A stretch of 64,000 bases of DNA from positions 1,536,001-1,600,000 of the forward strand of contig CBDCTJ010000007.1 of the NCBI GenBank assembly GCA_965222115.1. The letters run 5' to 3'. The stretch comes from Planctomycetota bacterium. Its GTDB lineage: Bacteria > Planctomycetota > PLA2 > JAEUHO01. The notes under the pieces are model-generated. The model ran no database searches, was not told where the DNA came from, and was given only the letters and a program-made list of their open reading frames with translations. The position numbers were made by a program, and so were the translations under genes. This document shows positions 3,884-26,539 of the stretch, in pieces (position 1 is the stretch's first letter; every line of letters begins with the position of its first letter).

Positions 3884-6800
3884 ATGACTATGCTTCGAGA
3901 TCAATCTCGCACTTGGATCGTTGTCCTAGGCCTCTTCGCCGTTGCCGCGAGCAGTCCGTTGAACGTGGTGTTTGCGAAGAAGGACAAACCCACGCTCGAT
4001 GATGCGGCCAAGCAGGTTGTGGCCGAGGCTCTTGCAGACAAGGAGGATGCCGAGAACGCGGCCCACAATCTCGATCGTACATTCGCACTCAAAGCCTATT
4101 CGTCGGCCGCGCTCTTGGAGCATCTTCAGGCGGTAGACAAAGAAGATGCGAAACGCGCGCGCGCCGAGAGCCTTTTGTTGCATCTCTACTTGCGCGCCGG
4201 CAAGTTGCGCGATGCGTTGACGATTGCCGAGACGCAATGGAAGGATGGCGAGGCCGGTCGAAAGCTAAAGCTCGGCGAACTTCAAGAGGCCGCTGGTCGA
4301 AACGCGAAGGCACTGGATACCTATCTTTCGCTGATAGGCGAGGCCGGGGACGTCGGCTGGACCGCATCGCTGCGTGCGGCGCTCTTGCGACTTGATGGTG
4401 TCGCGAGCGCTGGGAAGACTGCCGACAAGAAGCCGACCGCCAACTCAAAGAAGCCCGAAGACAACAAAGGCGCAGACGATGGGGACAATGACAACGATCC
4501 GCTCAACCCGGTGAACATCCTCACTGAGGCGGTGAATCGTTCGCCCAAGTCCGTGCGCGAGGCGCGCGGCAACCGCGCAGCGATGGTGTTAGCGCTCACG
4601 GGCAAGGCGGACAAGGCGCGCGCGCTCTACCACGTTCCCAAGAACGCCGAGAAACCCGTGCGCGCGATGTTGCGCATGGCGCAGTGGTGCTTGCATGACC
4701 GTGCGTGGGACGAAGCGCGCACGTGGGCCGATAAAGCGATCGATGTGGCCACGCTCAAGCGGGATCGACGCTACGCCTATGCGCTGTTGACTGAGGCCTA
4801 TCGCGGGACGAATGATCTACCAAAGTTGATCGAACGATTGCTAGCGAGCGAGTCGTTATCTGATGAGGCACAGGATCTCTTAATCGAACTCCTGCGCGAG
4901 ACCGGGCAGCCCGAGAAGGCGTTGGCATTCTTCAATGAGGAAAAGCGCGCATCGTTGACACCTGAGATTCAGCGCCAGTTTCTTGAGATGTTGCGAGACG
5001 CCGGTCGTACCAAGGACATGGTGGCGCGCTACAAAGACGCCATTCACCGCGAGCCCGAACGACTGCTTTGGCGTTCGGGGCTGTCGCGCTACTACCTCGA
5101 AGAAGGCACGCCGGCGCAAGCGAAAGCAGTTTGGCGTGATCTCTTGGACGTGAGTAAGACATTTACCCCCGAGCGAGGACCGTGGATTCAGTTGGGTGCT
5201 GCCGAGGAGATTGCGTCGCAGGGGCTCCACAAACTTGCTCTTGAGCTTGGGGAGCGAGCGGCCAAGCACGAAGCGACCCAGTTTCCCGCCCTGCTTTTTC
5301 TCGCTGATGTGCATGTGCGCACCGGAAAGACAAAGTTGGCTGAAGCCGTACTCGATCGCTTTGACAAAGCGGCCGCGCCCAAAGCCAAAGAACGCCTTCA
5401 ACTGGCTGAGGTCTATGAGCGCCTGGGACGTAAGGATCGCGCGGCCACGGTCTTGGAGGACTTGCGCCGCGCCCGCGGCGAGGACAAGAGCGAAGAAGAT
5501 CTCGACATGCGCCTCGCCGTGTTGCTCAGCGAGGTCGATCGTGACGCCGACGCATTGAACCTCTGGCGCCACGTGTGGAAGCGCGTCAAAGCCCCTGCTC
5601 GCCGACAGTATGTGGAGGATCGCATACTCACCGTCGCAGCACGCGAAGGCGAACTGGCCGACATTGCAGTCGATCTCGAAGAGCGATTGGTGGCCGGAAA
5701 AGCCAATGAACGCGAGAGTGGGTTGCTGATTCGTCTGTATACGCGCGTGGGTGATCCCGTGTCGGCCGCCGAGGTGTTGGAAGAGCGCGTTAAGCGTCAG
5801 AAGTCCGATCAGGTCAAGGCGCTTCAAGAACAGGCGCGCATCTATCTCACCTGTACCGACTACTTCAACTACGAAGAGGTCGTTCGAAAACTGATTGATC
5901 TCGATCCCGAGGGTGAGCGCGATTATCTGCGTCAACTGGCCATGAGCGCATTGGAACGCGGACGTCCGCTTGAAGCGCGCGGTTCCCTTCGTCGCCTGAA
6001 GCAACTCGAAGGCGGCGTGGATGGCGCCGAGTTTGAAGCCGGCATCCTCGCGCTTGGTGGACTAAATGACGATGCCATGGCCGCCTATCGCAAGGGTCTG
6101 GCTGCGCATCCGGAACGCATTGAAGTGTATCTCCTGCTTGCCAAGACCATGGCCGCGGCGAAACAGAAGGACGAGGCGATTGGCATGTTCCAGTCGCTAC
6201 TTACAAGCGCAGAGAAGGACGATCTGTTCACCGTGGCGGTGGATGGGCTGCTCAATATGGAAGCGCCCAATCCTGTACTGCAATGGGCCCGCCGCCGCAT
6301 TGTGGAGCGCGTATCGAATCGCGTCCATCGCGTTTTCTTCTATCAGCTTTACGGCGATCTATCCGAGCAGTTGAAAGAAAACCATCGCATGGTCGTGGCC
6401 CTTTCCGAGTCACTTCCTGTGGCGGGCGAGCGCCGTGGTTCGATCCTGCGCGAGATTATGGACATCTCGTCGCAATCGGGCTTTTCGCCGTTCTACTACG
6501 GGAATCGGCGTGAAGAGGGCGGTGGAACCAAGCTTCGGTACGGTCGCCGACTACTTTTGTTGGGCGATGTGGTACCGCCTCAGGTGTATTTGGACCTTGG
6601 CCGCGCGTTTTTAGAGAATGATGAAGTGAGCGTGGCGTTGCGTACGTTTTCATTGGCTCGCGACCTGCCCGACTTCGATGCGTTTCGCAAACAAGTGGCT
6701 GAAACTTTTGAGACGGCGGGTTATTTGCCTGAAGCGCTCCGATTGTATCAACGCGCATTGATTGGCCGAGCGGAGAGCATTTCCTTGCTCAAGAAAATCG

Positions 6801-9800
6801 GCACGCTTCACGAGTTAGAAGGTCGGTATAAGGAGGCCTTTGCCCGCTATCGCCGCGCGATGAATTTGATTCTCTTGCAGCGTCCCTTTGCCGATCGTGC
6901 AGCGCTTGAGAGCTTTGATGATCGCCCCTGGATGCGGTATTGGGGTGGCAAGAACCTCGACGCCTACGACGAACACTACAGCGACACGTTGCGCGCCTAT
7001 CTAGCGACCATGCCGGAGGGCGTCGAGTTACAACCGGTTATCAAGGAGCATCTCGATTGGTTGGAAAAGGACTTTGCGGAGGTCGAGGAAGCGCTTGCGA
7101 AGCGCGCGAAGGCAAAGAAGCCCTCTGATGACGACTCAAAGATCCGCGCAGCGTCGTTTCCTCGCCTCAACAGCCGTATCAAGTTGGTGAGGCGACTCGC
7201 GCTAGCAACCGGCGACCGGGCGCTGGCCGACCGCCTTGACAAACGATTGATTTCGCTTTTTCCGAAAGACCTTTCGCTGGTGAAGACGCTGGTGCGCGGT
7301 CGGCTTGGTTGGGGACTTGTGGCGAGTGCGCTGACCATGATTGAAACTGCGTCGCTTGAGGAAGATGCCGCAAGTGAGTTATTCCTATTGGCCGGCAAAC
7401 AACCAGAAAAACCCTCCGTAGCTGCACTCGCACCTAGTGAAGCCGCGCGTGTGTTGCTGGCGCCGCTCATGCGCGGCGATGAAGACACCGTGCGATCGTT
7501 GTTGCGTCGAGTCGATGCATCGGATGCAAAGAAGGACGACATTCCTCATATCAAACTGCTGGCCAAGGCCGCGGTACACATGAGTGAGCATGAGGTGCTC
7601 CTGTCGCTCGGTCGCCGCTGGCTTCACTTGTCGGCCACATCGGGATCGGGATGGTCGCGCGGCAACGAGATTCGCGACGCGCTCGACTTCTGTTGGCCTC
7701 ACTTTGACGACGTATCACGGAAGAGCCTTGTGCATCCGCTAGGACGCGTTGTCGTGAAGGAGCCGAAAGAGGCGCAGTACGTTTTACCGATCATCGAGGA
7801 CGTGCAGTCCGCGCTCGATCTTTCGTTGTTGACCGAAGAGGAGGCTAAGAAGGTCATCGATGAGTTGGTAGGGGGAAAGCGCCGCACGTCGATGTACTCA
7901 GCCGCCAAGTTCTTTGCCCTGCTGCCCAAGGACGCTCACACGGAGTTTCTGCGCAAGATTTTTGAAAAGGAGCCCATAGAACGACGTGCCCGATCCGTGA
8001 TTTGGGCGCTGGGTCAGCTAGCGGGCAAGTTGTCCGACGACGCCCTGGATTACCTCGAAGCCACCATGCGCGGCAGCATCAAGAAGATGAAGCAACCCAT
8101 GCGTTGGTGGTCCTACGGCCAGACGCTCACATCCAATGAGGCCCAGGCAGAACTCAACTTCCGTTTTCTGAAGGTCATTACCGGTGACGATCCTGAAGAG
8201 CCGCCCCACTTGGCCGCGCTCGCCCTCGCCTATCGAACGATGGGGAAGAAGGAAAAGGCGTGGACGTATGCCGAGAAAGCGTTTTCGACGTTTATGGAGC
8301 GCGGCGCCGATGACTGGACGCTCCGTGCGCCGCTGAGTCGCGTCATCGATGTGTTTGGTGAAGACCACGCAGACGCGTTTCTCAAGGTGATCGACGAACT
8401 CGAGAAGAAGAACGGGCCCAACGAGACCACCACCACGTGGAAGCTCAATCTCCTTTCGCGCGACAAGAAGCCCGAGGAGGTGCTCGCGTTGTTGGAGAAG
8501 GCGCGGAAGAAGGACCCCAAGAACAAGTCGATTCTCAATCGCTTGCAGAATCAGTATCGAGCCATGGGCAGCCCCATGGACGCTATCAAGCTTATTCAGA
8601 AGCGCCTTGAGGATGCGCCTGACGACCAGGCACTCAAGAACCAGCTCTCGACCGCGTGGAGTCGTCTCAAACATCCGATCAATGCCGAAAAGGCCAAACG
8701 TGGTAAGGACAAGAAGAAGGGGCCCTCGAAAGAGGATAAGGAGCGCGCAAAGAAGAAGTTCAAACCCGCCACTGTCAAGCGCATTAAGGAAGCGATTGAG
8801 GGCAAGCAGCTCGACAAGGCGCGGGTGCTCATGCATCAAATGTGGCGCGGCATTTCGCCTGGCACGTCACGCAATCGCTATGGCCCGGTGATTTACTACG
8901 TCAATGGTGTTCCTCAGTTGCATGGGGGCGGCTCGCTCGCGAACGCGCTGTGGCCCGAAGAGAAGAAGAAGGATCGTCGCGTTCGGCGTGGCGGACTTCC
9001 CGATTTCGAGGCCATGCGGAAGGCCGAGGTCGAACGACGCGAAAACAAGAAGGCTGACCGGCGCCTTAGTGCCTATGAAGTGCTCGTTGATCATGAGTTT
9101 GGTCGTAAGGAGATCGAGCGCGAGCTGCGCACGATGTCAGGGTCGGGATTGGAAGGCGCCAGCAATCTGTTGCGCGCCCTCAATCGCAAACGTGAAAAGG
9201 AGATCGGCAAAGAGAAGCTGATCGAAGAACTTCTTGAGCGCGTTACAAGTGGTCACGCGCGCAGCGATACGTTCTATCGGTTGCTCTTGCTTGCCGAGGA
9301 TCAGGCCGAGGCACTCAGCGACAGCGGCGAACGAATCGCCACGAGCCTCATGACCAATGTCGCGCCCGACGATTCGCGCCTCATCCTTCGGTTGGCCAGC
9401 TGTTTGGCGGCGGCAGGCAAGACCGACGCCGTGGAGCGACTGTTGCGTTGGTGCGCCAGACTGGCCACGTCCGGCGGTGGCTTTGATCCCTTCGGCGGTT
9501 ACAGCCCGCGAGCGAGCACCCACGGTGTGATTCATGCGATACGAAAGCACCTAGAGGGTGAGCAGCGCAATCGATCGATCGAGGCGGTACTCGCCATGAG
9601 TGATCCGCGCAAGCCGAAGCTCAAGCGCAGCACCGATCGCAATCCGTGGAGCAACTTCGGTGCCGACGAGTCGTATTCGACGCTGTTGCTCAATACGTGG
9701 AGCGAGGTCATAGGTGCCGAGGCCACGCTCGAGCGATTTGAGTCCATTGTGAAGCGAGCGCTAGATACCGAACGATCGGTGCAGCGAAATGCGGCAGCTA

Positions 9801-10636
9801 CCGTTGCGCGTCTCGCGGCCGCGTCGGGCAACTATGAACTCGCACTGCGTGCATTGGAAGTCGCTGTGTGCGCCTTCCCCGACTGGTCGTTCCCCGATGA
9901 CGTCAAGCGAGACCCTAGCAATCGTTACTTCTATGAGCACCGGGAGCGTATCGCGCACAACTCAAGGGGAATCGGCTCCGATATGCTGTATGCCTTGTTT
10001 GTTCGTCAACCGGATGATGGTGAGGATGCGGTTGACAATGAGGCATCGAAGACCGATGCGGACGAAGAAGACGAAGAGGATCGCAAACCCGAATCAGACG
10101 AGGACGCAGACGACGATGAGGCGATCGACGCTGCTAATGCAAAGATCGTTTGGCTCGTGCATGCGTCAGAGACCATCGATGGGTGGGTAGAAGACAAGCG
10201 GCTGAAGGCGGCGGGTGCGTTTGGCGCTCATTGCGTCATCGCCGTCGAGCTCTTTCGTGCAGGGGCCGAAGAAGAAGCCGCGGCCCTACTTACGAAGGCC
10301 CAGCAACAAGCTCATGAGAATCCGCGTTGGGCGCTGTGGATTGCCGACGCGTATCGCGAAATGGCGCAAGAGGATGAGGCCATCGCGATTGAGCGCCAAC
10401 TGCTAAAGAGTCGAACAATCTACTTGGAGCGCGTGCCCCGAGTCGTGCGTGCCGTCTTGGAACAAGACGGTCCCCAAGCGGCCCTCAAGCTCGGCAACGA
10501 CGTGTCCAGGTTTACGCTGCACCCCGATCTTTTGCGCGTGCTCATCGAGTCTGCGTCTGCGGCAAAGGACGAGAAGGCCGAAGCCACGTGGCGGGCCATG
10601 GCGAAGGAAGCCTGGCCGAAAGACGTCTTCAAATGA
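3884..10636 (+). CDS. Giant (2250 aa) exported TPR-repeat protein
   Basis: N-terminal signal peptide, many TPR-like helical repeats, a Lys-rich and an Asp/Glu-rich linker. ATG directly follows the upstream TAA. Confidence 0.75.
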   Translation: MTMLRDQSRTWIVVLGLFAVAASSPLNVVFAKKDKPTLDDAAKQVVAEALADKEDAENAAHNLDRTFALKAYSSAALLEHLQAVDKEDAKRARAESLLLHLYLRAGKLRDALTIAETQWKDGEAGRKLKLGELQEAAGRNAKALDTYLSLIGEAGDVGWTASLRAALLRLDGVASAGKTADKKPTANSKKPEDNKGADDGDNDNDPLNPVNILTEAVNRSPKSVREARGNRAAMVLALTGKADKARALYHVPKNAEKPVRAMLRMAQWCLHDRAWDEARTWADKAIDVATLKRDRRYAYALLTEAYRGTNDLPKLIERLLASESLSDEAQDLLIELLRETGQPEKALAFFNEEKRASLTPEIQRQFLEMLRDAGRTKDMVARYKDAIHREPERLLWRSGLSRYYLEEGTPAQAKAVWRDLLDVSKTFTPERGPWIQLGAAEEIASQGLHKLALELGERAAKHEATQFPALLFLADVHVRTGKTKLAEAVLDRFDKAAAPKAKERLQLAEVYERLGRKDRAATVLEDLRRARGEDKSEEDLDMRLAVLLSEVDRDADALNLWRHVWKRVKAPARRQYVEDRILTVAAREGELADIAVDLEERLVAGKANERESGLLIRLYTRVGDPVSAAEVLEERVKRQKSDQVKALQEQARIYLTCTDYFNYEEVVRKLIDLDPEGERDYLRQLAMSALERGRPLEARGSLRRLKQLEGGVDGAEFEAGILALGGLNDDAMAAYRKGLAAHPERIEVYLLLAKTMAAAKQKDEAIGMFQSLLTSAEKDDLFTVAVDGLLNMEAPNPVLQWARRRIVERVSNRVHRVFFYQLYGDLSEQLKENHRMVVALSESLPVAGERRGSILREIMDISSQSGFSPFYYGNRREEGGGTKLRYGRRLLLLGDVVPPQVYLDLGRAFLENDEVSVALRTFSLARDLPDFDAFRKQVAETFETAGYLPEALRLYQRALIGRAESISLLKKIGTLHELEGRYKEAFARYRRAMNLILLQRPFADRAALESFDDRPWMRYWGGKNLDAYDEHYSDTLRAYLATMPEGVELQPVIKEHLDWLEKDFAEVEEALAKRAKAKKPSDDDSKIRAASFPRLNSRIKLVRRLALATGDRALADRLDKRLISLFPKDLSLVKTLVRGRLGWGLVASALTMIETASLEEDAASELFLLAGKQPEKPSVAALAPSEAARVLLAPLMRGDEDTVRSLLRRVDASDAKKDDIPHIKLLAKAAVHMSEHEVLLSLGRRWLHLSATSGSGWSRGNEIRDALDFCWPHFDDVSRKSLVHPLGRVVVKEPKEAQYVLPIIEDVQSALDLSLLTEEEAKKVIDELVGGKRRTSMYSAAKFFALLPKDAHTEFLRKIFEKEPIERRARSVIWALGQLAGKLSDDALDYLEATMRGSIKKMKQPMRWWSYGQTLTSNEAQAELNFRFLKVITGDDPEEPPHLAALALAYRTMGKKEKAWTYAEKAFSTFMERGADDWTLRAPLSRVIDVFGEDHADAFLKVIDELEKKNGPNETTTTWKLNLLSRDKKPEEVLALLEKARKKDPKNKSILNRLQNQYRAMGSPMDAIKLIQKRLEDAPDDQALKNQLSTAWSRLKHPINAEKAKRGKDKKKGPSKEDKERAKKKFKPATVKRIKEAIEGKQLDKARVLMHQMWRGISPGTSRNRYGPVIYYVNGVPQLHGGGSLANALWPEEKKKDRRVRRGGLPDFEAMRKAEVERRENKKADRRLSAYEVLVDHEFGRKEIERELRTMSGSGLEGASNLLRALNRKREKEIGKEKLIEELLERVTSGHARSDTFYRLLLLAEDQAEALSDSGERIATSLMTNVAPDDSRLILRLASCLAAAGKTDAVERLLRWCARLATSGGGFDPFGGYSPRASTHGVIHAIRKHLEGEQRNRSIEAVLAMSDPRKPKLKRSTDRNPWSNFGADESYSTLLLNTWSEVIGAEATLERFESIVKRALDTERSVQRNAAATVARLAAASGNYELALRALEVAVCAFPDWSFPDDVKRDPSNRYFYEHRERIAHNSRGIGSDMLYALFVRQPDDGEDAVDNEASKTDADEEDEEDRKPESDEDADDDEAIDAANAKIVWLVHASETIDGWVEDKRLKAAGAFGAHCVIAVELFRAGAEEEAAALLTKAQQQAHENPRWALWIADAYREMAQEDEAIAIERQLLKSRTIYLERVPRVVRAVLEQDGPQAALKLGNDVSRFTLHPDLLRVLIESASAAKDEKAEATWRAMAKEAWPKDVFK

Positions 10637-12791: not shown

Positions 12792-12903
12792 CGCGGATAT
12801 CGCTTCTTCGCGCGTTCCTCTTCTGCTGCCGGTAACCCGTGCGCCGCCCCTTCAACCGTGGGCGCCGTGTCTCGATCACGTGGTCCTCGAGAGCAACCAT
12901 CCC

Positions 12904-15180
12904 ATGTCTCATGAACAGTCTGGAGGTATAGCGCCCCCGCGCACGCGCGGCGTTTTGCTTCTCAATCTCGGCTCGCCCAGCGGATGCGACCCGCGTTCGG
13001 TGCGGCGCTACTTGGCCGAGTTTCTTGCCGATCCCGAAGTGATCAAATTGCCGCGCGGTATGCGGTGGTTTGGGAAACCTCTTGCACGCATGATCGCGCG
13101 CTCTCGCGCCAAGCAATCGGCCCACGCCTATGCATCCGTATGGACCGACGATGGTTCTCCCTTGCTCGTGATTTCTGACGCGCAGGGCAGGGCGCTTGCC
13201 CATGTGTTGGGACGTGCATTCGATGTGCGGGTGGCCATGCGTTACGGTCATCCTTCCATTGATGATGTTGTTGCGTCGTTCGTCGAGGATGACATTCACG
13301 ACGTCACAGCGGTTCCGATGTATCCTCAGTTTGCCGGCGCGACCACAGGCACCGCGTTGGCCGCGCTGTATCGCGCCTTTGAACGTCACGCGCGAGACAC
13401 GGAACTTGTCGTTCGCAATGCGTGGTACGACGATGCGGGCTACATTCAGGCCCAAGTCGCGGTACTTAACGAGGCAATCGCGAAGCACGGCCTCACGCCC
13501 GACAACACCACGCTTGTATTTAGCGCCCACTCTCTGCCCGTGGCCTACATCAAGGCCGGCGATCCGTACCAAAAGCACATCGTGGAAACCGTTCACCTTG
13601 TGTCAAAGGCTCTTGGGTGGCCAGAAGAGCGCATCACGCTCGCCTACCAATCCAAGCTTGGTCCGGTGGAGTGGCTCGCGCCGCAAACCGCTGAAGTCAT
13701 CGAATCACTTGCTAAGAATGGCACGCCCAACGTTTTCGTGTGCCCCATCAGTTTCACGGCGGACTGTTTGGAGTCGCTTGAAGAGCTCGATATCCGTGGG
13801 CGCGACGTAGTCGAGGCGCACGGCAGCAACTTCCATCTTTGTCCCGCGCTCAATGATCACCCTGCGTTCATTGAAGCGCTGGCAGGAATTGTCCGACGAG
13901 GGACGCGGCCTATCGCGTTGGAATCCAAATGTTCGGATGATGCTCCCGCTCAGCTCGATGCCGACTGGATGAGCCGGTTGGTGGTCACGGGCCTATCGCG
14001 CGAGCCTGGCGCACTCGACGCATTGCGTGATGCGGGCGTCCACATTACTAACCATGTTGATGATGCCACGTTTGCCGCGAGCAAGCGCACCCACCAAGAG
14101 GTGCGCGGACTCTGCTCGGCGCTAGGGGAGCGTGGTGTCGAGCAGAGTGTGGTTGTTTCTACGTGCGCGCGTGTGGAAGCCTATTCGCTCGCCCCGGCCG
14201 CGAGGGAAACCGAACAAAGGAGAACGATCACACGCTTACAATCAACATTGCTAACGGACGTCCATGACGCCTCCCACCCTCAAGTGCACGTTGGCCATGA
14301 GGCCTACCGACACGCGGTGTTGACCGCGGCGGGGCTATTGAGCTCTTTGCCCGGCGATAACGACGTCAGGCTTCAGCTTTGCAGTGCGGCGCGCACGGCG
14401 GAAGATGTTGCCCACGGCGCAACAGCTATCGGCATGGTCATGACACGGGCAACGGAAGCCGCCCAAGCCCTGTCGGAGGCAACCACGTGGCGTGATTTCC
14501 GCGTGGGGTTTGCCGATGTCGCCTTGGATGGAATTTCTCGATCGGCTTCCGTGGACTGGACGCAGATGCGATCCGTTGTTGTGTTGGGTGGGTCCACGAC
14601 GGCGCGAAGCACAATTCACACGTTGCGAAGGCGTCATGGCGTGCGTCCTTCTCAGCTAACGGGCATCTACCGCACGCGCAGCCGTGGAAAACAGCTCAAG
14701 GCGCTACGCCAAGCGCTGCGCGGCGCAACACCGTTGCGTGTCGATCGCTACGATGACGCGCGTGTACTCGATGCGCTGGCCCATGCCGACGTAATCGTGT
14801 TCGCGCACGATGCTCGTGAACCGATCTGGTCCGCCGAACAGGCCATGACACGCAGCGCTCAGACCAAAGTGATCATTGATTTCAACTCGTTCCCATCCAC
14901 ACGAGGGTTTGAAGACGACGAATCAACCGCATTGTGGCGACTCTGCGACATTGAGGCCGTTGTGCGTGACTATGCGGCTTCACTTGCGGGTTGTGAGCGA
15001 TTCCGCGTTGCCGTCCGCGAGGCGTTGGCGTGGCTTGAAGAACACATTGGTGCCACGCGCGAGGGTCGATCCATGGACGCCCGCCCGAGAAACGACCGCG
15101 TGACATGTACGCGGAGCGGTTGCGGTTGCAAGCGCGCCTTCGTGCCCGAAGTTCGCACGCGTGTGGAGACGGTGTCGTGA
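12904..15180 (+). CDS. hemH: Ferrochelatase (HemH) fused to a divergent glutamyl-tRNA reductase (HemA-like) domain
   Basis: N-half: LLNLGSP, MRYGHP, PMYPQF, SAHSLP, YQSKLGPVEWLAP, DCLESLEE. C-half from about 13969: VVSTCARVEAY and EAYRH..TAAGLLS..GDNDVRLQL align to HemA STCNRxE / GLDS..GExQIxGQ. Confidence 0.88.
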   Translation: MSHEQSGGIAPPRTRGVLLLNLGSPSGCDPRSVRRYLAEFLADPEVIKLPRGMRWFGKPLARMIARSRAKQSAHAYASVWTDDGSPLLVISDAQGRALAHVLGRAFDVRVAMRYGHPSIDDVVASFVEDDIHDVTAVPMYPQFAGATTGTALAALYRAFERHARDTELVVRNAWYDDAGYIQAQVAVLNEAIAKHGLTPDNTTLVFSAHSLPVAYIKAGDPYQKHIVETVHLVSKALGWPEERITLAYQSKLGPVEWLAPQTAEVIESLAKNGTPNVFVCPISFTADCLESLEELDIRGRDVVEAHGSNFHLCPALNDHPAFIEALAGIVRRGTRPIALESKCSDDAPAQLDADWMSRLVVTGLSREPGALDALRDAGVHITNHVDDATFAASKRTHQEVRGLCSALGERGVEQSVVVSTCARVEAYSLAPAARETEQRRTITRLQSTLLTDVHDASHPQVHVGHEAYRHAVLTAAGLLSSLPGDNDVRLQLCSAARTAEDVAHGATAIGMVMTRATEAAQALSEATTWRDFRVGFADVALDGISRSASVDWTQMRSVVVLGGSTTARSTIHTLRRRHGVRPSQLTGIYRTRSRGKQLKALRQALRGATPLRVDRYDDARVLDALAHADVIVFAHDAREPIWSAEQAMTRSAQTKVIIDFNSFPSTRGFEDDESTALWRLCDIEAVVRDYAASLAGCERFRVAVREALAWLEEHIGATREGRSMDARPRNDRVTCTRSGCGCKRAFVPEVRTRVETVS

Positions 15181-16598
15181 GCTCTCTAGAGGTTGCCGTT
15201 GATCGCGAGGTGTTTCAGCGATACGTCGGTCTTTCACTTCCGCGGCACGTCTCCTACCCCATGCCCACATGGTGGTCGGCCTTCGACTCACGTGACGCAA
15301 AGCGTCTGATTGACCGTCGCACGGAACGCACGACGTTCCACGATTTGTCTCTGTATATCCACATTCCTTACTGCCAAGCGCTCTGCAAGTTCTGTGCGTG
15401 CTCGCGCGTGATTCAACGCAAGGAGGGGCGCGGTGCGGCGGAGCGAACGCAGGCTTATGTGGATGCGTTGGTGCGGGAGATTCGATCCGCGGGCCGCAGC
15501 AACAACGCCGCGCAGGTTAGGCAGATTCACTACGGCGGCGGCACGCCAACCTATTTGTCGATCGAACAACTCCGTGCGATCCACGATGCCATCAACGATA
15601 CGTTCGACATCGCCTCCGATGCGGAAGTCGCGATGGAGATCGATCCCCGGGTGACGAGTGACGAGCAGCTGGATTTGCTTGCCGACCGTGGCTTCAATCG
15701 ACTGTCCCTGGGCGTGCAGGACTTTGACCGGACGGTGCAAGAGCATGTCCATCGCGTGCAGCCCTACGAGCAAGTGAAGCAGATCGTGGATGCCTGTCGT
15801 GTGCGTGGGATCGCGTCCATCAATTTCGACCTGATCTATGGACTGCCGTACCAAACGATGGACACCGTGTCCGATACGCTCGCGCGTGTGATTGAACTTT
15901 CGCCCGATCGCGTGGCCTACTATCACTACGCACAGATTCCCGACACAATTGCTACCCAAGTTGCCATCCATCATCACGCCATGCCCGATTCCGACGTGAA
16001 GTTGGACATGTTCACGAAGGGCGTGCGTGTGTTCACGGAAGCCGGGTATCGATTCATTGGACTCGATCACTTTGCGCGAGACCACGAGGGGCTTGCCAAG
16101 GCTGAGGACGACGGCGGGTTGCATCGAAATTTTCAGGGCATGACCACCGGAGCGGCGCTCGATCTGGTGGCTTTCGGTGCCAGCGCAATCAGTGAGTGGC
16201 ACGACCTCGGCTATCTACAAAATGTCCGGGATCCCGTTGCCTACGTGAGCGCGATCAACGCAAACGGAACCGCCGTCCATCGTGGAATGGCGCTTTCGGA
16301 TGACGATCGCATCCGCAAGGCAGTGATTCACCAGATTTATTGCCATGCGCGAATAGTGCCCGCTCACATTGAATCCCAGTTTGACATTTCATTTGGAGCC
16401 TATTTCGAACGTGAACTCGACCAGTTGAATGACTTGGCATCAGACGGCATCGTGATTCCCGAGGCCGATGGCTCGTTCTCCATTCCGTATCCTCTGGGAC
16501 GGGTATTGATGCGCAATGTTGGTGCGATTTTCGACGCCTACTTGCCCGACGAGGCCTATCGCGTCGGATGTCGAAGCACCTACTCGACGAATGCGTGA
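15177..16598 (+). CDS. hemN: Oxygen-independent coproporphyrinogen III oxidase (radical SAM)
   Basis: PRHVSYP, YIHIPYCQALCKFCAC (CxxxCxxC), GGGTP, RNFQG. GTGA overlap with the upstream stop. Confidence 0.93.
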   Translation: MSSLEVAVDREVFQRYVGLSLPRHVSYPMPTWWSAFDSRDAKRLIDRRTERTTFHDLSLYIHIPYCQALCKFCACSRVIQRKEGRGAAERTQAYVDALVREIRSAGRSNNAAQVRQIHYGGGTPTYLSIEQLRAIHDAINDTFDIASDAEVAMEIDPRVTSDEQLDLLADRGFNRLSLGVQDFDRTVQEHVHRVQPYEQVKQIVDACRVRGIASINFDLIYGLPYQTMDTVSDTLARVIELSPDRVAYYHYAQIPDTIATQVAIHHHAMPDSDVKLDMFTKGVRVFTEAGYRFIGLDHFARDHEGLAKAEDDGGLHRNFQGMTTGAALDLVAFGASAISEWHDLGYLQNVRDPVAYVSAINANGTAVHRGMALSDDDRIRKAVIHQIYCHARIVPAHIESQFDISFGAYFERELDQLNDLASDGIVIPEADGSFSIPYPLGRVLMRNVGAIFDAYLPDEAYRVGCRSTYSTNA

Positions 16599-16602
16599 AG
16601 CC

Positions 16603-17670
16603 ATGCATCAACGCCTGCCCACAAACGATCTTGTGTTGCGTGCCGCGCGCGGCGAACCGACGCCGCGCACGCCTGTGTGGTTCATGCGTCAGGCGGGCCG
16701 CTTCGATCCTGCCTATCGCGCGCTCAAGGAACGCGAGCAGCGGCCGCTTGAGGCGATGTTCGCCGACCCCGACATAGCCACCGAGGTCACATTGCTTCCG
16801 CAACGCTATGGCGTAGATGCCCTAATTCTTTTTCAAGACATTCTCACAATCTGCGGGCCGATGGGGGCGCGCTTTGTGTTTCGGCCGGGTCCCGTTCTGG
16901 CGCATCCGATTCGAACCGCCCGTGATGTTCAGGGATTGCGTTCCATGAGCCCCGAAGACGACATGCCATATGTGTCGGCCTCGATTCGGCACGTTCTGAC
17001 TTCCGTGGATGGTGCGTTGCCGCTGCTTGGGTTTGCCGGTGCACCGCTCACCGTCGCCGCCTTCATGGTTGCGGGCGAGAGTCCAGGTGCGGACCTTGCC
17101 GACCTCCGGACGATGATGCGCGAGTCACCCGAGGCACTGCACGACCTTATGCGTCATCTCGCTGCGCACACAAGCCGCTATCTGGACATGAAAGTTCGCG
17201 CGGGCGTTCACGCCGTTCAACTCTTCGAATCCATGGCCGATCGTTTGTCTGTAGACGAATACAACACGTGGGCTCTTCCCTATCAGCAACAAGTGTTTAC
17301 GTCGATGCATGAAGCGGCCACGCGAATCATCTTCGCCAAGGGTTTTAGCGACGTTCGTGCGCTGCTTGCCAGTGGCGCCGAGTGTTTGAGTGTGTCCGGT
17401 GACGTAGACCTGCGCGTGGCTCGCGCGCGACCTGACTGTGAGACTGTGGGCATCCAAGGCAACCTTAGCAACGTCTTGCTTCGCGATGGAACGCCCGACG
17501 AAGTGGAGCGTGCCACGCGTGCGTGCATTGATGCGGGGAGGCACAGGGGCCATATCCTCAATCTCGATCACGGGCTCTTTCCTACCACGCCACCCGAGAA
17601 CGTGTCGCGCGCGATTCAAACAGCAAAAACATATGTTGTCTCTGCGCCGACAGGCCCACGCACAGCATGA
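16603..17670 (+). CDS. hemE: Uroporphyrinogen decarboxylase
   Basis: PVWFMRQAGR, LFQDIL, GFAGAP, IQGNL, HILNLDHG. Alternative ATG at 16591. Confidence 0.95.
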   Translation: MHQRLPTNDLVLRAARGEPTPRTPVWFMRQAGRFDPAYRALKEREQRPLEAMFADPDIATEVTLLPQRYGVDALILFQDILTICGPMGARFVFRPGPVLAHPIRTARDVQGLRSMSPEDDMPYVSASIRHVLTSVDGALPLLGFAGAPLTVAAFMVAGESPGADLADLRTMMRESPEALHDLMRHLAAHTSRYLDMKVRAGVHAVQLFESMADRLSVDEYNTWALPYQQQVFTSMHEAATRIIFAKGFSDVRALLASGAECLSVSGDVDLRVARARPDCETVGIQGNLSNVLLRDGTPDEVERATRACIDAGRHRGHILNLDHGLFPTTPPENVSRAIQTAKTYVVSAPTGPRTA

Positions 17671-19046
17671 GTGCCATTGAAACGAACGTGGCCATCGTAG
17701 GTGGTGGGATTTCAGGGCTTGTTTGCGCGTGGACGCTGGCGCGCGCGGGCACGTCGGTCGCGCTTCTTGAGGCGAGCAACGAGCTCGGTGGCTGCATGCG
17801 TACGTCCCATGGTGACGGCGTGTTGTTTGAACACGGTCCCTTCAACGTCTTGGCGAGAGCGCCTGCGTTTGTCAACTTACTACAAGCGTGTGAATCGGAC
17901 GTGGGTGTGGTGTCGCTGGCCGAGGCAAGTCGCAAACGCTATCTCGCTAAGCGTGGGGCGCTTCATGCGATTCCCATGTCGCCGTGGGGTTGGCTCAAGT
18001 CGCCGTTGCTATCACCCATGGGGCGGCTGCGCCTCTTGCGAGGTGCGCTTGTTAGTCGACGCGCGCCCAAGAGAGAAGAGACGATCCATGAGGCCGCTAC
18101 GCGACGGTTGGGACGCGATGCCGCGGAGGTACTGGTGTCATCGGCCGTGGCCGGTGTGTTTGGTGGCGACAGCAAGCAGACATCACTTGCTGCCGCGTTT
18201 CCTCACGTAAGCGACGTCGATCGGCAAACGCGGAGTCCATTGATGGCGATGGTGCGGCGCGCCAAACAGCGAAAGCGAAGCGATCAAACCCGCCCCGCAA
18301 TGATTAGCTTCAAGAACGGCTTGCAGTCACTGGCGGACTGGCTCGGCGCAAACCTCAGCGATGGCGTATACCGCGAACACTTGGTCTCCTCGATTGTGCC
18401 TCGCGACAACGGCTGGCACGTTCACGCCAAGCATCACGGTCGCGAAGTGACTGTCGAAGCAAACAAGGTCGTTCTCACCACGCCCGCACGTGCCACGGGG
18501 TTGCTCGTGCGTGAGTTGGCGCCGAACGCCTCCGAAGAGTTGATCTCGCTCCCCACGTCCACCATGGCTGTAGTCAACTTGCTCTACGCGCGAAACGACG
18601 TCGCTCATCCGTTGGATGGCTACGGATTTCTCGTCCCCAACACAGAGAGCCAGCCGAAGTGTTTGGGCGCGCTGTTCGCCGACGCGGCGTTTCCACACCA
18701 CGCGCCGGAACATCAGTGCATTGTGCGTGTGTTCTTGGGCGGTCATCGCGAACCCGACATCTTGGCGCGCACCGACAAGGAACTTCGTGCGCAGGCGCGC
18801 GAAAGTGTTGAACCGCTGCTGGGCATCTCGGCTCAGCCTCGTTTTGCGCCCGTCATGCGCTGGCCTCGCGCCATTCCGCAGTACGCGATTGGTCATGCCG
18901 AGCGCATGGCCACAGTCGAGCGCGACGTGGCTCGTTTACCGGGATTGCATCTCGTGGGCAACTACCTGCGTGGGGTGTCAATCAATGACTGCGTGCGTGA
19001 GGCCGACGCACTGGCGAGGCGCATCCTTGCGGGGGAAGCATCGTGA
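17667..19046 (+). CDS. hemG: FAD-dependent protoporphyrinogen oxidase (HemY/HemG type)
   Basis: VGGGISGL FAD motif, FEHGP, GYGFLVP, RWPRAIPQY, GNYLRGVSINDC. Confidence 0.92.
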   Translation: MSAIETNVAIVGGGISGLVCAWTLARAGTSVALLEASNELGGCMRTSHGDGVLFEHGPFNVLARAPAFVNLLQACESDVGVVSLAEASRKRYLAKRGALHAIPMSPWGWLKSPLLSPMGRLRLLRGALVSRRAPKREETIHEAATRRLGRDAAEVLVSSAVAGVFGGDSKQTSLAAAFPHVSDVDRQTRSPLMAMVRRAKQRKRSDQTRPAMISFKNGLQSLADWLGANLSDGVYREHLVSSIVPRDNGWHVHAKHHGREVTVEANKVVLTTPARATGLLVRELAPNASEELISLPTSTMAVVNLLYARNDVAHPLDGYGFLVPNTESQPKCLGALFADAAFPHHAPEHQCIVRVFLGGHREPDILARTDKELRAQARESVEPLLGISAQPRFAPVMRWPRAIPQYAIGHAERMATVERDVARLPGLHLVGNYLRGVSINDCVREADALARRILAGEAS

Positions 19047-20077
19047 CAATCAGCGAATCCTTGGGCTCCCCGCGAGGGATACCGGAGCGTCCACGGCGCT
19101 TGCGTCGCACGCCCGTCATCGCCAATCTTGTTCGCGAGATACGTGTACACCCAAGTCAACTTGTGCTGCCCGTATTCGTTGTGGAAGGGCGCGAAATAGT
19201 TGATCCCATCGAGGCCATGCCGGGATGCGCGCGGCGTTCCATCGACGCACTGATGTCGCAATGCAAGGAAGCCTACGCATTAGGCATTCGTTCCTTTGCG
19301 CTGTTTCCCAAGATCGACGACGCATTGAAGAATCCCCAAGGATCGGAAGCGCTCAACGAAGACGGCCTTGTTTGTCGGGCCGTCCGGGCCCTGCACGACG
19401 CGCTCCCAGACGCCTGCGTATTTACCGATGTTGCACTTGACCCCTTCTCGTCCCACGGGCACGATGGACTCGTGGCCGACGATGGTCGCGTACTCAACGA
19501 TGAAACCGTTGACATCTTGGCTCGCATGGCCGTTGTACACGCGAAGGCGGGCGCCGACTTTGTGGCGCCGTCCGACATGATGGACGGACGCGTGGGGGCG
19601 ATTCGACGCGCATTGGATGGCGACGGGTATTACGACGTGGGCATTCTCTCGTATTGCGCCAAGTACGCGTCGGCGTTCTATGGACCGTTTCGCGAAGCGC
19701 TCGATTCCGCACCCGTCGATCTTGCGCACGTACCGAAAGACAAGACGACCTATCAGATGGATCCAGCCAATGCGCGTGAAGCGTTGCGCGAAGCAAGGCT
19801 CGACGAGCAAGAGGGCGCAGACCTATTGATGGTGAAACCTGCACTGCCCTACCTCGATATCGTGCATCGACTGTCCATCGCTTCATCGCTGCCTATTGCG
19901 GCGTACCACGTGAGTGGTGAGTACGCGATGGTGCGTGCCGCCGGGGAGCGCGGCTGGCTCGATGCCGACGCCTGCATGCGCGAGTCGTTGATTGCTATCG
20001 CGCGGGCGGGCGCGCGCGTGATCTTTACTTACGCGGCCGTGGACTACGCGCGCTGGTGGCGTTCCACAATGGCTTGA
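19043..20077 (+). CDS. hemB: Porphobilinogen synthase, Asp-rich (non-Zn) type
   Basis: RPRRLR, DVALDPFSSHGHDG, APSDMMDGRV, SAFYGPFR, MVKP, YHVSGEY. Confidence 0.96.
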   Translation: MTISESLGSPRGIPERPRRLRRTPVIANLVREIRVHPSQLVLPVFVVEGREIVDPIEAMPGCARRSIDALMSQCKEAYALGIRSFALFPKIDDALKNPQGSEALNEDGLVCRAVRALHDALPDACVFTDVALDPFSSHGHDGLVADDGRVLNDETVDILARMAVVHAKAGADFVAPSDMMDGRVGAIRRALDGDGYYDVGILSYCAKYASAFYGPFREALDSAPVDLAHVPKDKTTYQMDPANAREALREARLDEQEGADLLMVKPALPYLDIVHRLSIASSLPIAAYHVSGEYAMVRAAGERGWLDADACMRESLIAIARAGARVIFTYAAVDYARWWRSTMA

Positions 20078-20712
20078 GCGAGCGCCTCAAGCGACGGCGT
20101 GGGCGCCTCCACCCAGAGTTCATGACCCGCGGACTGGACAGCCCGACTTGTTGTGGGGCCAAGGCTGGCAAAGGGTCGTGTTTCGTTCTTCAGCGCGGAG
20201 ACGGCCGATGGACTCGTAACGGCAATCACCGTCGCAGATGATACGCGGTCGAAGTCAAACGCGCGCCGCGTTGTTTCATAGACGATGGGTGCCGAGAACG
20301 ATGAAAACCCGTGCGACGTAGGAACGTCTGCGAGATTCGAGCGCGCATACACGACGCGACCGGTGGGGGACTTCCTTCGTAGCGACGTAAAGAGTGCGTC
20401 AACGCCGGGACCCGGACCCATCAGCGCGCACCGTGCGCCGCGCGCTTCGAGAGCATTCTTTGTAGCTGGACCCACGGCGGCGAGTTTCGGTGTGTGCAAC
20501 ATGTGTTCCGGCAGTGCGTCAACCGCGAATGCACTCGTAAGGACGAGCCAGTCGTTTTCACAAAGCGATTCAAAATCAACGGGAAGCTCGTCCACCACGC
20601 GACGTTCGAGTACGGGTTCCAGGAGAACGTCTACGCCAGCATTGCGTAATGCACGTGAAAGGGGGCCACCCTCGGATTCATCTCGCGTGACCCATACGCG
20701 CAAGCCGTCCAC
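20044..20712 (-). CDS. hemD: Uroporphyrinogen-III synthase
   Basis: VWVTR, LVLTSAFAV, AVGPAT, VYET, TSPSAV, LGPTT. Lies downstream of hemC. Confidence 0.88.
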   Translation of the reverse strand: MDGLRVWVTRDESEGGPLSRALRNAGVDVLLEPVLERRVVDELPVDFESLCENDWLVLTSAFAVDALPEHMLHTPKLAAVGPATKNALEARGARCALMGPGPGVDALFTSLRRKSPTGRVVYARSNLADVPTSHGFSSFSAPIVYETTRRAFDFDRVSSATVIAVTSPSAVSALKNETRPFASLGPTTSRAVQSAGHELWVEAPTPSLEALAQAIVERHQRA

Positions 20713-20715
20713 TGA

Positions 20716-21612
20716 CTAGTCCTCACTCAGGGTATCGGCGTCGATCAGCATGCGCGCCAACTCGCGACCGACGCGTTCCGGGTCACGGCCAACGTGGGTG
20801 CCCGAGCCCACAAGCGTGCCCTCTGTCGTAAACAACTGTCCGTGCAACGAAATGACGTCACTGGCAATCGACGCCAACGCACCAATGGGCGTTTGGCATC
20901 CCGCTTCCGCCTCATGCATGAATGCGCGTTCCGCGGTGACGGCCTTGCGTACCGTTGCATCGTCCAGATCCGAGACGAGCACATGCGCGGCGCCATCGGC
21001 GCGTGTTTGCACCGCAAGCGCTCCTTGCGCGGGTGCGGGCACGAACTGAAATGCTGGTAGTACCAGTGAACATTCCGGTTCGATGCCGAGGCGGCGTACG
21101 CCGGCCGCGGCTAATACGATGGCGTCTAAGTTGCCTTCGTGAAGTCGTTTGATGCGGGTGGGCACGTTGCCACGAATAGGGACGACCGTATGCGCCGCTT
21201 CCAGCAAGAGCTGTGCGCGGCGACGGGCACTGCCGGTGCCAATCGTCATGGGTGACTTTAAGCCATCGAGCGTGACAGGTCGTTTGGCGATGAGCAGGTC
21301 TTCTACCGCCGCGCGCGAGGGTACTGCTGCGATTGCGAGTCCCTCGGGAGACGTAGTCGGAAGATCCTTCATGCTATGAACGGCGACGTCGATCGTTCCT
21401 TCGAGTAGCGCATGTTCCAATACGCTCACGAATGCGCCGCGTTCCCAGCCCGCTTCGGACGGTACGCTGCCTTGCGAGGCATCGCCCACCGTCTTGACGA
21501 CCACGGTTTCGATTTTGAGCGTCGGATGACTGCGCGCAATGGCGGCCGCAACCCAGGCGGTTTGCGTTCGTGCCAAAGCACTGCCTCGTGTTCCCAGTCG
21601 AAGCGTTGTCAC
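20716..21612 (-). CDS. hemC: Hydroxymethylbilane synthase (porphobilinogen deaminase)
   Basis: LGTRGSALA, AVHSMKDLP, GTGSARR, RGNVPTR, PAPAQGAL, GCQTPIG. Confidence 0.96.
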   Translation of the reverse strand: MTTLRLGTRGSALARTQTAWVAAAIARSHPTLKIETVVVKTVGDASQGSVPSEAGWERGAFVSVLEHALLEGTIDVAVHSMKDLPTTSPEGLAIAAVPSRAAVEDLLIAKRPVTLDGLKSPMTIGTGSARRRAQLLLEAAHTVVPIRGNVPTRIKRLHEGNLDAIVLAAAGVRRLGIEPECSLVLPAFQFVPAPAQGALAVQTRADGAAHVLVSDLDDATVRKAVTAERAFMHEAEAGCQTPIGALASIASDVISLHGQLFTTEGTLVGSGTHVGRDPERVGRELARMLIDADTLSED

Positions 21613-22919
21613 TCGGCTATCTCTTGCAGCGACTCGCGGGCGGCACTCACGATTTGATCGATGTCGGTTTCGGTGTGGGCCGAGGAAACGAAGAATGCCT
21701 CGTAGCTACTTGGCGGAAGCCATACGCCACGCGCCAACATGGCGTGGAAGAATGCTGCGTAGCGCTTGTGATCACACGCGGTGGCATCGACATAGTCGCG
21801 CACCGGTTTCTTGGAGAACGACAGGCCGAGCATGCCGCCAAGCGCATGGGTATGGAGTGGAATCTGTAAGTCTGCGCCGGCATTCGCAATGCCATCGGCG
21901 AGACGTTGCGAAGTGGCGTGCAACTCGTCATAGAAGCGCGGGGCTTGACACAGTTTGAGCGTGGCAAGGCCACTCGCCATGCCAAGTGGATTGCCGCTCA
22001 ACGTTCCCGCTTGATACATAGGCCCGAGCGGGCTCACGAGTTCCATGATCTCGCGCCGTGCGCCATACGCTGCAACGGGCATGCCGCCGCCCATGACTTT
22101 ACCTAAGCACGTAATGTCGGGCTTGATGTTGGCGTGTACTTGGTAGCCGCCCCACGCGACGCGAAAGCCCGTCATCACCTCGTCGAACACAAGCATGGCG
22201 CCGTACTTGGTGCAGAGTTCGCGAAGTCCTTCCAGGTAGCCGACCACGGGCGCCACAAAGCCCATGTTGCCCGCTACGGGCTCAACCATAATGCCCGCGA
22301 TGTCGTCACCCTGTTCACGGAACAGTGCCTCCACCGCTTCGAGATCATTGAACGGCACAAGTAGCGTCCCCGATGCAACCGGCGCCGGAACGCCCGCGGA
22401 GTTTGGCACGCCTGTCGTTGCTGCACCCGATCCCGCCGCCACGAGCAAACCATCGGCATGACCGTGGTAACAACCGATCATCTTGACGATTTTGGTGCGC
22501 GCGGTGGCCGCTCGCGCAAGTCGCATAGCACTCATGGTTGCCTCGGTGCCGCTGTTTACGAACCGGAGCATGTCCATACTAGGCAGTGCATCGAGGATCA
22601 ACTCTGCGAGTTCGGTCTCAAGTGCGCAGCATGCGCCAAAGCTCAGGCCGTTCGCAGCCGCTTCCTGTACGGCATCGACGACTGCGGGATGGGCATGGCC
22701 CACGATGGCGGGTCCCCAACTCCCAACCAGATCGAGGTAGCGATTGCCATCCACATCGATGATCGTGGCGCCGCTTGCGGACTTTACGAAGGCTGGCGTA
22801 CCTCCCACGGAGCCGAAGGCGCGCACGGGACTGTTGACGCCACCAACCAGCACCCGCTGCGCGCGCTCAAACATGATGGTGGATCGGGATCGTGGTGTGG
22901 AACTGTCAGACGCTTGCAT
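21609..22919 (-). CDS. hemL: Glutamate-1-semialdehyde 2,1-aminomutase
   Basis: GGVNSPVRAF, VNSGTEATMSA, FDEVMTGFR, LGKVMGGG, YQAGTLSGNP. Confidence 0.97.
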   Translation of the reverse strand: MQASDSSTPRSRSTIMFERAQRVLVGGVNSPVRAFGSVGGTPAFVKSASGATIIDVDGNRYLDLVGSWGPAIVGHAHPAVVDAVQEAAANGLSFGACCALETELAELILDALPSMDMLRFVNSGTEATMSAMRLARAATARTKIVKMIGCYHGHADGLLVAAGSGAATTGVPNSAGVPAPVASGTLLVPFNDLEAVEALFREQGDDIAGIMVEPVAGNMGFVAPVVGYLEGLRELCTKYGAMLVFDEVMTGFRVAWGGYQVHANIKPDITCLGKVMGGGMPVAAYGARREIMELVSPLGPMYQAGTLSGNPLGMASGLATLKLCQAPRFYDELHATSQRLADGIANAGADLQIPLHTHALGGMLGLSFSKKPVRDYVDATACDHKRYAAFFHAMLARGVWLPPSSYEAFFVSSAHTETDIDQIVSAARESLQEIAE

Positions 22920-26097: not shown

Positions 26098-26296
26098 GGC
26101 ATTGGCGCGCATCCAAGAGTCCGCGTCTGCGTGCCTCTCGATAGATCGAGTGTGCAAGACTGTTAGACATGAGCGCTTTGTGGATTAGATGCGCCGCAAG
26201 CTTGGAGTATTCTCGACGTAAAATGGGATGCCCGGAACTGGCAAATTTGTAGTTATTCGATTGCTATCGCCGTTGGCGCTCAATGACACTGTCAAC

Positions 26297-26403
26297 GATC
26301 CCGGAGGGATCACGGGTCAATAGCCCAGGGTGTAGCGCAAGCGTAGCGGCGCGGAACCCTGGGTTCACGTTCCCTCCCAATCATCCCGCCCTGTATGGGC
26401 GGC
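26297..26403. repeat. REP-like multi-hairpin element
   Basis: Three short palindromes in about 105 bp: GATCCC-GGA-GGGATC, CCCAGGG...CCCTGGG, CCGCCC-TGTAT-GGGCGG. Confidence 0.55.
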
Positions 26404-26539
26404 GGAGACGTGCACGCATTCCCGGTACCTCACGTAGAACCAAAATCGTACGGCGCGAGCATTGTTGACTGTTCGTTCCACGCATCTTGGCACGGGACAT
26501 AGGTCACGAAGTTGGTGGGAACAAGCGCGGCACGGTATC

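Follow-up and report, generated by a model that had tools for sequence, protein, structure and literature searches.

A 64-kb window of a Planctomycetota genome (64,000 nucleotides of contig CBDCTJ010000007.1, assembly GCA_965222115.1; the window is the whole stretch of DNA analyzed, and all positions are given in its coordinates) carries a haem biosynthesis cluster in which one open reading frame (ORF) joins a ferrochelatase (HemH) to a homologue of glutamyl-tRNA reductase (GluTR, HemA). The product is probably a bifunctional haem enzyme whose C-terminal half serves as the GluTR of the organism's C5 pathway; judging from the sequence data, we put the probability of this reading at roughly two in three. 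It is the best of the readings considered because the nucleophile motif of GluTR is conserved, the gene is under purifying selection, hemL is present in the cluster, and neither the window nor the sequence flanking the fusion in 20 related loci showed another hemA.

Organization of the fused gene

The frame is open without interruption from 12880 to 15180 in the ORF listing of the window. A preliminary description of this DNA had proposed one uninterrupted HemH-HemA-like fusion, with a full HemH domain, a short linker, and a HemA-like domain from about position 13969, and all of these elements were recovered. The first ATG, at 12904, gives a 758-aa form, and the same form is present in the public protein set as P0002. 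From the N to the C terminus, the protein comprises a ferrochelatase domain, a short linker predicted with low confidence, a GluTR-homologous module, and a disordered tail. Both modules fold confidently in the full-length AlphaFold2 (AF2) model, with a predicted local distance difference test score (pLDDT) of 90.2; the linker is a segment of nine low-confidence residues, and the first elements of the C-terminal module are placed at P0002 residues 355-365 (nt 13966-13998). The features of the gene are as follows.

12880..15180, + strand: whole fused ORF, 766 aa from the GTG at 12880; stop codon TGA at 15178-15180
12946..13899, + strand: ferrochelatase (HemH) domain, residues 23-340 (Pfam PF00762, NCBIfam TIGR00109)
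13528..13530, + strand: codon of His217 (CAC) in the motif S-A-H-S-L-P (codon check)
13771..13773, + strand: codon of Glu298 in the motif D-C-L-E-S-L-E-E-L-D (codon check, family alignment)
13921..13947, + strand: inter-domain linker, P0002 residues 340-348, the one stretch inside the full-length model where pLDDT falls below 50
13966..15087, + strand: GluTR-like module with catalytic domain, Rossmann domain, and two terminal helices (PF05201, family profile, AF2, Foldseek)
14161..14178, + strand: T-C-A-R-V-E motif with Cys429, the presumed thioester-forming nucleophile (aligned with 1GPJ and 4N7R, codons checked)
14587..14604, + strand: atypical nucleotide-binding loop G-G-S-T-T-A, aligned on G-A-G-E-M-G of 1GPJ
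15088..15177, + strand: disordered C-terminal tail of 30 residues with three Cys (C-x5-C-x-C); pLDDT below 50 in the C-half and full-length models

Both halves are under purifying selection, as judged from the low ratios of nonsynonymous to synonymous substitution rates (dN/dS) in the two closest locus pairs. In the HemH half, the ratio was 0.096 for the first pair and 0.042 for the second; in the C-half, with its variable tail counted in, it was 0.160 for both. The second pair has a dS of about 1, near saturation. Prediction of a complex between the HemH domain and the C-half scored 0.00 in both runs, which were made without controls and count neither way. Within the family, the tail has at least three Cys in 69 of 261 members and a C-x-x-C in 55 of 261. 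Since animal ferrochelatases have C-terminal cluster ligands, a metal or Fe-S site in this tail could be imagined by analogy, as pure speculation.

The C-terminal half is a diverged, short-form GluTR-like module

The C-half is homologous to GluTR by profile and by predicted fold, as the preliminary description had supposed. GlutR_N (PF05201) was detected at residues 406-533 with 47.5 bits against a gathering score of 27. The single C-half sequence matched the GluTR of Methanopyrus kandleri (1GPJ) with an E-value of 3e-4, and a profile of 48 family sequences matched 1GPJ and the Arabidopsis GluTR (4N7R) in the PDB at 5.3e-21 and 1.3e-20, respectively, over the catalytic and nucleotide-binding domains. 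The AF2 model of the C-half was of high confidence (pLDDT 88.7; predicted template modelling score, pTM, 0.87), disorder being confined to the last 30 residues; its C terminus consists of two helices followed by the disordered tail. Foldseek against the PDB returned GluTR chains at all of ranks 1-7 (4N7R, 1GPJ, 5YJL, and 5CHE; E-values 2.3e-14 to 8.1e-13, TM-scores 0.41-0.61), and a generic Rossmann dehydrogenase at rank 8 (E 1.2e-4).

The T-C-A-R-V-E motif aligns on T-S-N-R-V-E of 1GPJ and T-C-N-R-M-E of 4N7R, the Ser of the former presumably replacing the catalytic Cys in the crystallised protein. Conservation was counted in 168 family sequences of 590 aa or more, aligned with MAFFT. In the nucleophile motif, T, C, and E occur in 168/168 and R in 167/168, while in a second motif G485 and Q499 are found in all 168 sequences and S488 in 166. 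The columns common to both solved GluTRs are kept (T-C-x-R-x-E, H-x-x-R, G-L-x-S, G-E/D, and Q), and where the canonical motif G-E-Q-E-I-L has Q-E, the fusion family reads x-D. The Rossmann domain is present as a fold in the model and gives weak NCBIfam matches of the shikimate dehydrogenase type, its loop not being the canonical G-x-G-x-x-G. The family consensus of this loop is G-G-S-T-T-S, with G570, S572, and T574 in 168/168. Because both the equivalog score and the dimerisation domain of HemA fail, as detailed below, sequence comparison assigns the module to a distinct, deeply diverged short-form GluTR clade and not to ordinary hemA.

The N-terminal half is a ferrochelatase that keeps its active site

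The ferrochelatase domain is full length, since PF00762 matched over profile positions 2-315 of 317 (329.7 bits, cut-off 27). The score with TIGR00109 (hemH) was 286.5 bits against a curated cut-off of 124.6. The nearest solved structures are human ferrochelatase 2PO7 (E 1.7e-38) and the yeast enzyme 1L8X (E 6.5e-33). His217 and Glu298 occupy what we take to be the positions of the conserved active-site His and Glu of the human and Bacillus subtilis ferrochelatases. Both residues are retained in 12/12 intact-type fusions aligned to the HemH-domain hidden Markov model (HMM), among which adjacent R-Y and Y columns are also conserved. By these sequence comparisons, the active site of the N-half ferrochelatase is intact, and the domain is nearest to the protoporphyrin-type enzymes. 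Use of protoporphyrin IX and not of the coproporphyrin III route would be the natural reading, because a HemY-type oxidase and a hemN scoring above its cut-off are encoded in the cluster.

The fusion is widespread in related genomes

An HMMER search with the C-half alone gave 212 matches with E-values up to 1e-3, 75 up to 1e-10, and 28 up to 1e-30; most of the strong ones were proteins of 600-800 aa matched in their C-terminal half. GlutR_N was present in 59/59 such matches scanned with Pfam and was combined with Ferrochelatase in 30, while GlutR_dimer (PF00745) occurred only in four HemA proteins of canonical length. A word-index search with the C-half matched only the protein itself; with the full-length protein, it gave 180 matches. 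The best 120 of these 180 clusters all carried PF00762 and PF05201, the domain pair on which the preliminary description had wanted the architecture checked. They were 655-1270 aa long and, the self-match aside, 36-44% identical to the window protein over 83-98% of its length. The organisms named among the best 120 were Planctomycetota, Phycisphaerae, or Phycisphaerales, and the named records read "ferrochelatase" except for two Joint Genome Institute (JGI) variants (P0195 and P0205).

A scan of species-representative genomes retrieved 20 loci, 16 of them titled Planctomycetota, Phycisphaerae, or Phycisphaeraceae and two "uncultured bacterium." The search patterns used (LPGERDV.. and VIGGSTTSA) are absent from the window sequence, and the sample of 20 loci is biased and comes from one sub-clade, the window's genome and more distant forms lying outside the sample. 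The HemH and GluTR-like halves were in one frame with no stop between them in 20/20 loci; 18 were complete ORFs of 762-836 aa, and two ran off their contigs. The linker region could be aligned across relatives. The preliminary description had envisaged that a stop or frameshift in the linker, or two separate proteins in relatives, might come to light; the loci contained neither a stop nor a frameshift between the halves, and the retrieved relatives encode one protein. Because of the in-frame fusion in all 20 loci and both domains in the best 120 of 180 clusters, sequence evidence excludes an artefact for the family, and nothing points to one in this genome.

The gene order is also shared. hemN follows the fusion in 18/20 loci, then hemE, hemY, and hemB wherever the contig extends, and hemD, hemC, and hemL stand in reverse orientation in the five longest loci. 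The window's hemB is 65-68% identical to those of the Phycisphaerae loci. The architecture was already visible in databases as precomputed Pfam domains and a few JGI names, the proteins being mostly mislabelled "ferrochelatase."

The haem gene cluster and the search for another hemA

All haem-pathway steps after GluTR are encoded within 10 kb. The genes next to the fusion are as follows.

15105..16598, + strand: hemN, oxygen-independent coproporphyrinogen III oxidase (TIGR00538, 450.1 bits; cut-off 324.95)
16516..17670, + strand: hemE, uroporphyrinogen decarboxylase (PF01208, 296.2 bits; TIGR01464, 281.7 bits, slightly below the cut-off of 302.95)
17667..19046, + strand: protoporphyrinogen oxidase of the HemY type (TIGR00562, 243.3 bits; cut-off 97.85)
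19043..20077, + strand: hemB, porphobilinogen synthase (NF006762, 461.9 bits; cut-off 297)
20044..20712, - strand: hemD, uroporphyrinogen-III synthase (PF02602, 84 bits)
20716..21612, - strand: hemC, hydroxymethylbilane synthase (TIGR00212, 266.1 bits; cut-off 164)
21609..22919, - strand: hemL, glutamate-1-semialdehyde 2,1-aminomutase, which consumes the product of GluTR (TIGR00713, 585.1 bits; cut-off 527.3)

The start of hemN is uncertain: it may be the ATG at 15105, with a 76-nt overlap with the fusion, or the GTG at 15177, with G-T-G-A over the fusion stop. With either start, the two genes look translationally coupled from their sequence, and in several relatives the hemN match likewise begins ahead of the fusion stop. 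Overlaps of 4 nt join hemE to hemY (17667-17670), hemY to hemB (19043-19046), and hemC to hemL (21609-21612). In the ORF listing, hemB and hemD, which converge, share 34 nt.

That no separate hemA accompanies the other pathway genes had been noted from the cluster itself, and this holds for the whole window: 67 HemA-like queries in tblastn produced 53 matches at 13-15 kb and one stray match at 29 kb, and no second hemA was found in the 64 kb. In the 20 related loci, too, no other hemA was found up to 10 kb away from the fusion.

Stand-alone, degenerate, and other fused forms

A quick IQ-TREE phylogeny (LG+G4; supports by the Shimodaira-Hasegawa-like approximate likelihood ratio test, SH-aLRT, only; 98 rows) was rooted by assumption on 22 canonical GluTRs. 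The branch between canonical GluTR and a divergent clade of 76 rows has 100% support. The earliest-branching members of this clade are stand-alone proteins of about 350 aa (support 100), followed by a small stand-alone group consisting of P0008, P0047, and P0054 (support 98). The remaining rows are intact HemH fusions and, nested among them, two clades of a degenerate type (SH-aLRT 100 and 99), nearly all members of which have a weakly ferrochelatase-like N-domain. With the root so assumed, the dimerisation domain was probably lost before the fusion arose, because the stand-alone short forms branch below the fusions, and therefore the loss was probably not compensated by fusion at the outset.

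In the degenerate type, as aligned to the HemH-domain HMM, the catalytic His is kept in 1/19 and His and Glu together in 0/19, while all 19 retain the GluTR motif. In some further relatives, the catalytic His is replaced by Tyr. The named members of the degenerate type belong to Gemmatimonadota (P0009, P0273, and P0277) and Zixiibacteriota (P0274). A few JGI records name degenerate forms "glutamyl-tRNA reductase," and P0296 is named "glutamyl-tRNA reductase/protoheme ferro-lyase," so at least one annotation pipeline recognised both halves. Genomes with a dead fused HemH should encode a separate, working hemH. Compared with the preliminary description, the new points are the diverged GluTR clade with its altered loop, the spread of the fusion in Phycisphaerae, and the dead-chelatase version in Gemmatimonadota.

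Other combinations were also seen. P0004, P0195, and P0240 are predicted triple fusions of HemH, the GluTR-like module, and a radical-SAM HemN (1231-1270 aa), and one of these clusters has 10 member sequences. P0010 and P0321 carry the GluTR-like module with a SirC/Met8-like NAD_binding_7 domain instead of HemH; here again, the partner of the reductase is a late tetrapyrrole enzyme. Eight further candidates were rejected as true stand-alone forms: P0019, P0028, P0045, and P0048 have a C-terminal remnant of HemH at their N-termini, and P0025, P0029, P0057, and P0062, each placed next to a degenerate-fusion partner by the tree, probably represent gene calls that were cut short.

Proposed function and alternatives

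In the proposed pathway, Cys429 would attack Glu-tRNA(Glu), and the resulting thioester would be reduced to glutamate-1-semialdehyde with a nicotinamide cofactor. From this, the HemL of the cluster would produce 5-aminolevulinate (ALA), which HemB, HemC, HemD, HemE, HemN, and the HemY-type oxidase could then convert to protoporphyrin IX. Insertion of iron into protoporphyrin IX would be performed by the N-terminal HemH module of the same polypeptide.

Several observations weigh against assigning GluTR activity to the C-half. Its scores with the curated hemA models are far too low: TIGR01035 gave 43.9 bits at residues 417-668 against a cut-off of 209.55, the NF0007xx models 21.9-50.7 bits against 289-478, and the hemA models overall, at residues of about 413-668, 21.9-50.7 bits against 209-478. 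The dimerisation domain GlutR_dimer (PF00745) was not matched in the window protein in Pfam and NCBIfam scans, in line with the shortened HemA C-terminus of the preliminary description. The second and third Gly of the canonical nucleotide-binding loop are replaced by Ser and by Ser or Ala, so that cofactor binding, and even catalysis, can only be presumed, and to our knowledge this loop and the presumed oligomeric state are unlike those of every characterised GluTR. The window protein further departs from its own family, with A in place of N/H/Q after the Cys, L-L-S-S in place of L-N-S, and F-P-S-T in place of F-G-S-T; it is an outlier, with no more than 44% identity to full-length relatives among the matches listed, and it sits on a long branch (1.38) of a tree that is itself quick and rooted by assumption, its place within the fused group being tentative. 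Since the global pTM of the full-length AF2 model is only 0.66, the relative orientation of the two modules is not fixed, and they are predicted to have no fixed contact. Finally, the absence of another hemA applies to the 64-kb window and the flanks of the 20 loci, and a canonical hemA or an ALA synthase may lie elsewhere in the genome of about 3.07 Mb or in those of the relatives.

Besides inserting iron, the HemH module may also serve the GluTR module non-catalytically, as a scaffold, a stabilizing element, or a regulatory partner replacing the lost C-terminal domain. This weaker proposal is suggested by sequence comparison, because relatives in another phylum keep the module after its catalytic residues have decayed. 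The ideas of end-product sensing and of dimerisation supplied by HemH, both raised in the preliminary description, are compatible with such a role. A more specific version, which we regard as rather doubtful, is that a monomeric short-form GluTR is gated by iron status or by porphyrin or haem bound in the HemH pocket, HemH thus being a built-in sensor and scaffold. The short-form GluTR would then have given up the canonical dimerisation and regulatory domain, and the Gemmatimonadota module would be a catalytically dead, purely regulatory pseudo-ferrochelatase. Known controls of GluTR act through HemX, through FLU/GBP, or by proteolysis, and gating by a fused HemH would be mechanistically unlike these. 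If true, it would constitute a self-contained end-to-start feedback device for tetrapyrrole flux.

Passive "Rosetta-stone" joining of operon neighbours, with independent halves gaining only co-expression and 1:1 stoichiometry, is a reading to which we give a lower, though appreciable, probability. It would fit the tight packing of the hem genes with their 4-nt overlaps and the low-confidence linker, which leaves the inter-domain orientation unfixed in the AF2 model; fusion of hemN as well in the three triple-fusion clusters looks opportunistic. On the other hand, the HemH-like domain has been retained in two clades after loss of its catalytic residues, which a passive joining would not predict. 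The fusion also coincides with loss of the GluTR dimerisation domain, an argument weakened by the short stand-alone forms (P0008, P0047, P0054, and the group of about 350 aa).

It is unlikely that the C-half is a GluTR-derived, non-catalytic module that tunes the ferrochelatase by binding Glu-tRNA, a nucleotide, or a tetrapyrrole, with the real GluTR or an ALA synthase encoded elsewhere. The very low hemA scores, the altered glycine-rich loop, the missing dimerisation domain, and a hemA search of this genome confined to 64 kb all leave room for it. However, the Cys and its flanking T, R, and E are kept in 167-168 of 168 sequences, drawn from two or more phyla, which would not be expected of a pseudo-enzyme, and the dN/dS of the C-half is 0.16. 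In Gemmatimonadota, moreover, decay has struck the HemH half and not the GluTR-like half, and hemL belongs to a cluster in which, as in the rest of the 64 kb, nothing else was found to supply its substrate. The few JGI names given to degenerate-HemH forms point the same way, as automated annotation only.

Reduction of another activated acyl substrate in a different pathway is very improbable. The large divergence of the C-half and the x-D in place of Q-E would allow it, but the fusion gene stands in a hem cluster in the 20 loci, the motif columns of both solved GluTRs are conserved, and strong fold matches came from GluTRs alone. An assembly, sequencing, or gene-calling artefact, such as a lost stop or frameshift between hemH and hemA, has only general possibility in its favor and is practically negligible given one frame without a stop in 20/20 independent genomes, both domains in all of the best 120 of 180 clusters from several sources, and a linker that aligns across relatives.

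If the C-half is indeed the organism's GluTR, pathway reconstructions for Phycisphaerae, and probably likewise for Gemmatimonadota, may report the entry enzyme of the C5 pathway as missing, because the fusion is mostly named "ferrochelatase" only. A short-form GluTR clade with a different loop and no dimerisation domain would challenge the textbook picture of an obligate V-shaped dimer and raises the question of how tRNA, the cofactor, and HemL are engaged. The covalent link between the first and terminal steps, together with a lineage in which the ferrochelatase is dead, offers a simple, testable system for the study of haem end-product sensing.

Other features of the window

The region at about 26000-38700 has a G+C content of 0.53-0.56, compared to about 0.60 elsewhere in the window, and may be an acquired island. 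It contains a gene for a 2137-aa RHS-repeat/DUF6531 protein (30612-37025) and has a tRNA-Lys(ttt) gene (38594-38669, - strand) at its end. A Fur-family regulator (39771-40460, - strand; PF01475, E 2.7e-24) is encoded about 17 kb from the hem cluster. Many very large proteins with tetratricopeptide (TPR) or HEAT repeats are encoded at 3884-10636, 40307-43927, 46573-50439, and 54386-60139, one of them with DUF4388, PEGA, and a PQQ-like propeller. These repeat proteins fit the Planctomycetota-like affinity suggested by the relatives of the hem genes, such as hemB with its 65-68% identity to Phycisphaerae loci.

Comparison with known systems

Canonical GluTR (HemA/GtrR; TIGR01035, with the domains PF05201, PF01488, and PF00745), represented by the structures from M. 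kandleri (1GPJ) and Arabidopsis (4N7R, 5CHE, and 5YJL), is an obligate V-shaped dimer with a C-terminal dimerisation domain on a long spinal helix. The window module shares with it the homologous catalytic and Rossmann domains and the Thr-Cys-x-Arg-x-Glu motif, and is likewise encoded in a hem cluster with hemL. It differs in lacking PF00745, in having the loop G-G-S-T-T-S/A instead of G-A-G-E-M-G, and in being fused to HemH. The N-half resembles the human and yeast protoporphyrin ferrochelatases (HemH/PpfC) in its full-length domain and in keeping the active-site His and Glu columns. Unlike the human enzyme, the window protein adds a module of about 400 residues beyond the end of the alignment at chain residue 324 of 359, which we take to lie just before the C-terminal extension with the dimer contacts and [2Fe-2S] ligands.

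The preliminary description had stated that the familiar HemA and HemH fusions involve other partners, and two reported cases bear this out. One is a natural HemH-HemQ (CpfC-ChdC) fusion described in Cutibacterium acnes, which helped to assign the function of the partner (PMC13564367). There, too, ferrochelatase is fused to another haem-pathway enzyme, but the partner performs the adjacent last step of the coproporphyrin route, whereas the partner in the window performs the first committed step, seven reactions away. The second case is a HemA-HemB fusion reported in a single Sulfolobus assembly (PMC11237513). It is likewise a GluTR fused to another enzyme of the pathway, but with another partner, in another domain of life, and in one assembly as opposed to at least 120 clusters here. 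In plants, FC2 associates with the FLU/POR complex, by which GluTR is inactivated, and thereby ties the end of the haem branch to the synthesis of ALA (bioRxiv 10.1101/2022.10.12.511875). The plant system is non-covalent, multi-protein, and membrane-bound and involves a canonical GluTR, so that the parallel is only conceptual.

The full-text literature searched, which omits most subscription journals, yielded no account of HemH fused to GluTR, nor of GluTRs forming a clade that lacks the dimerisation domain. Viewed against these known systems, the fusion is a real, widespread, and apparently undescribed variant of known enzymes, and not a categorically new one.

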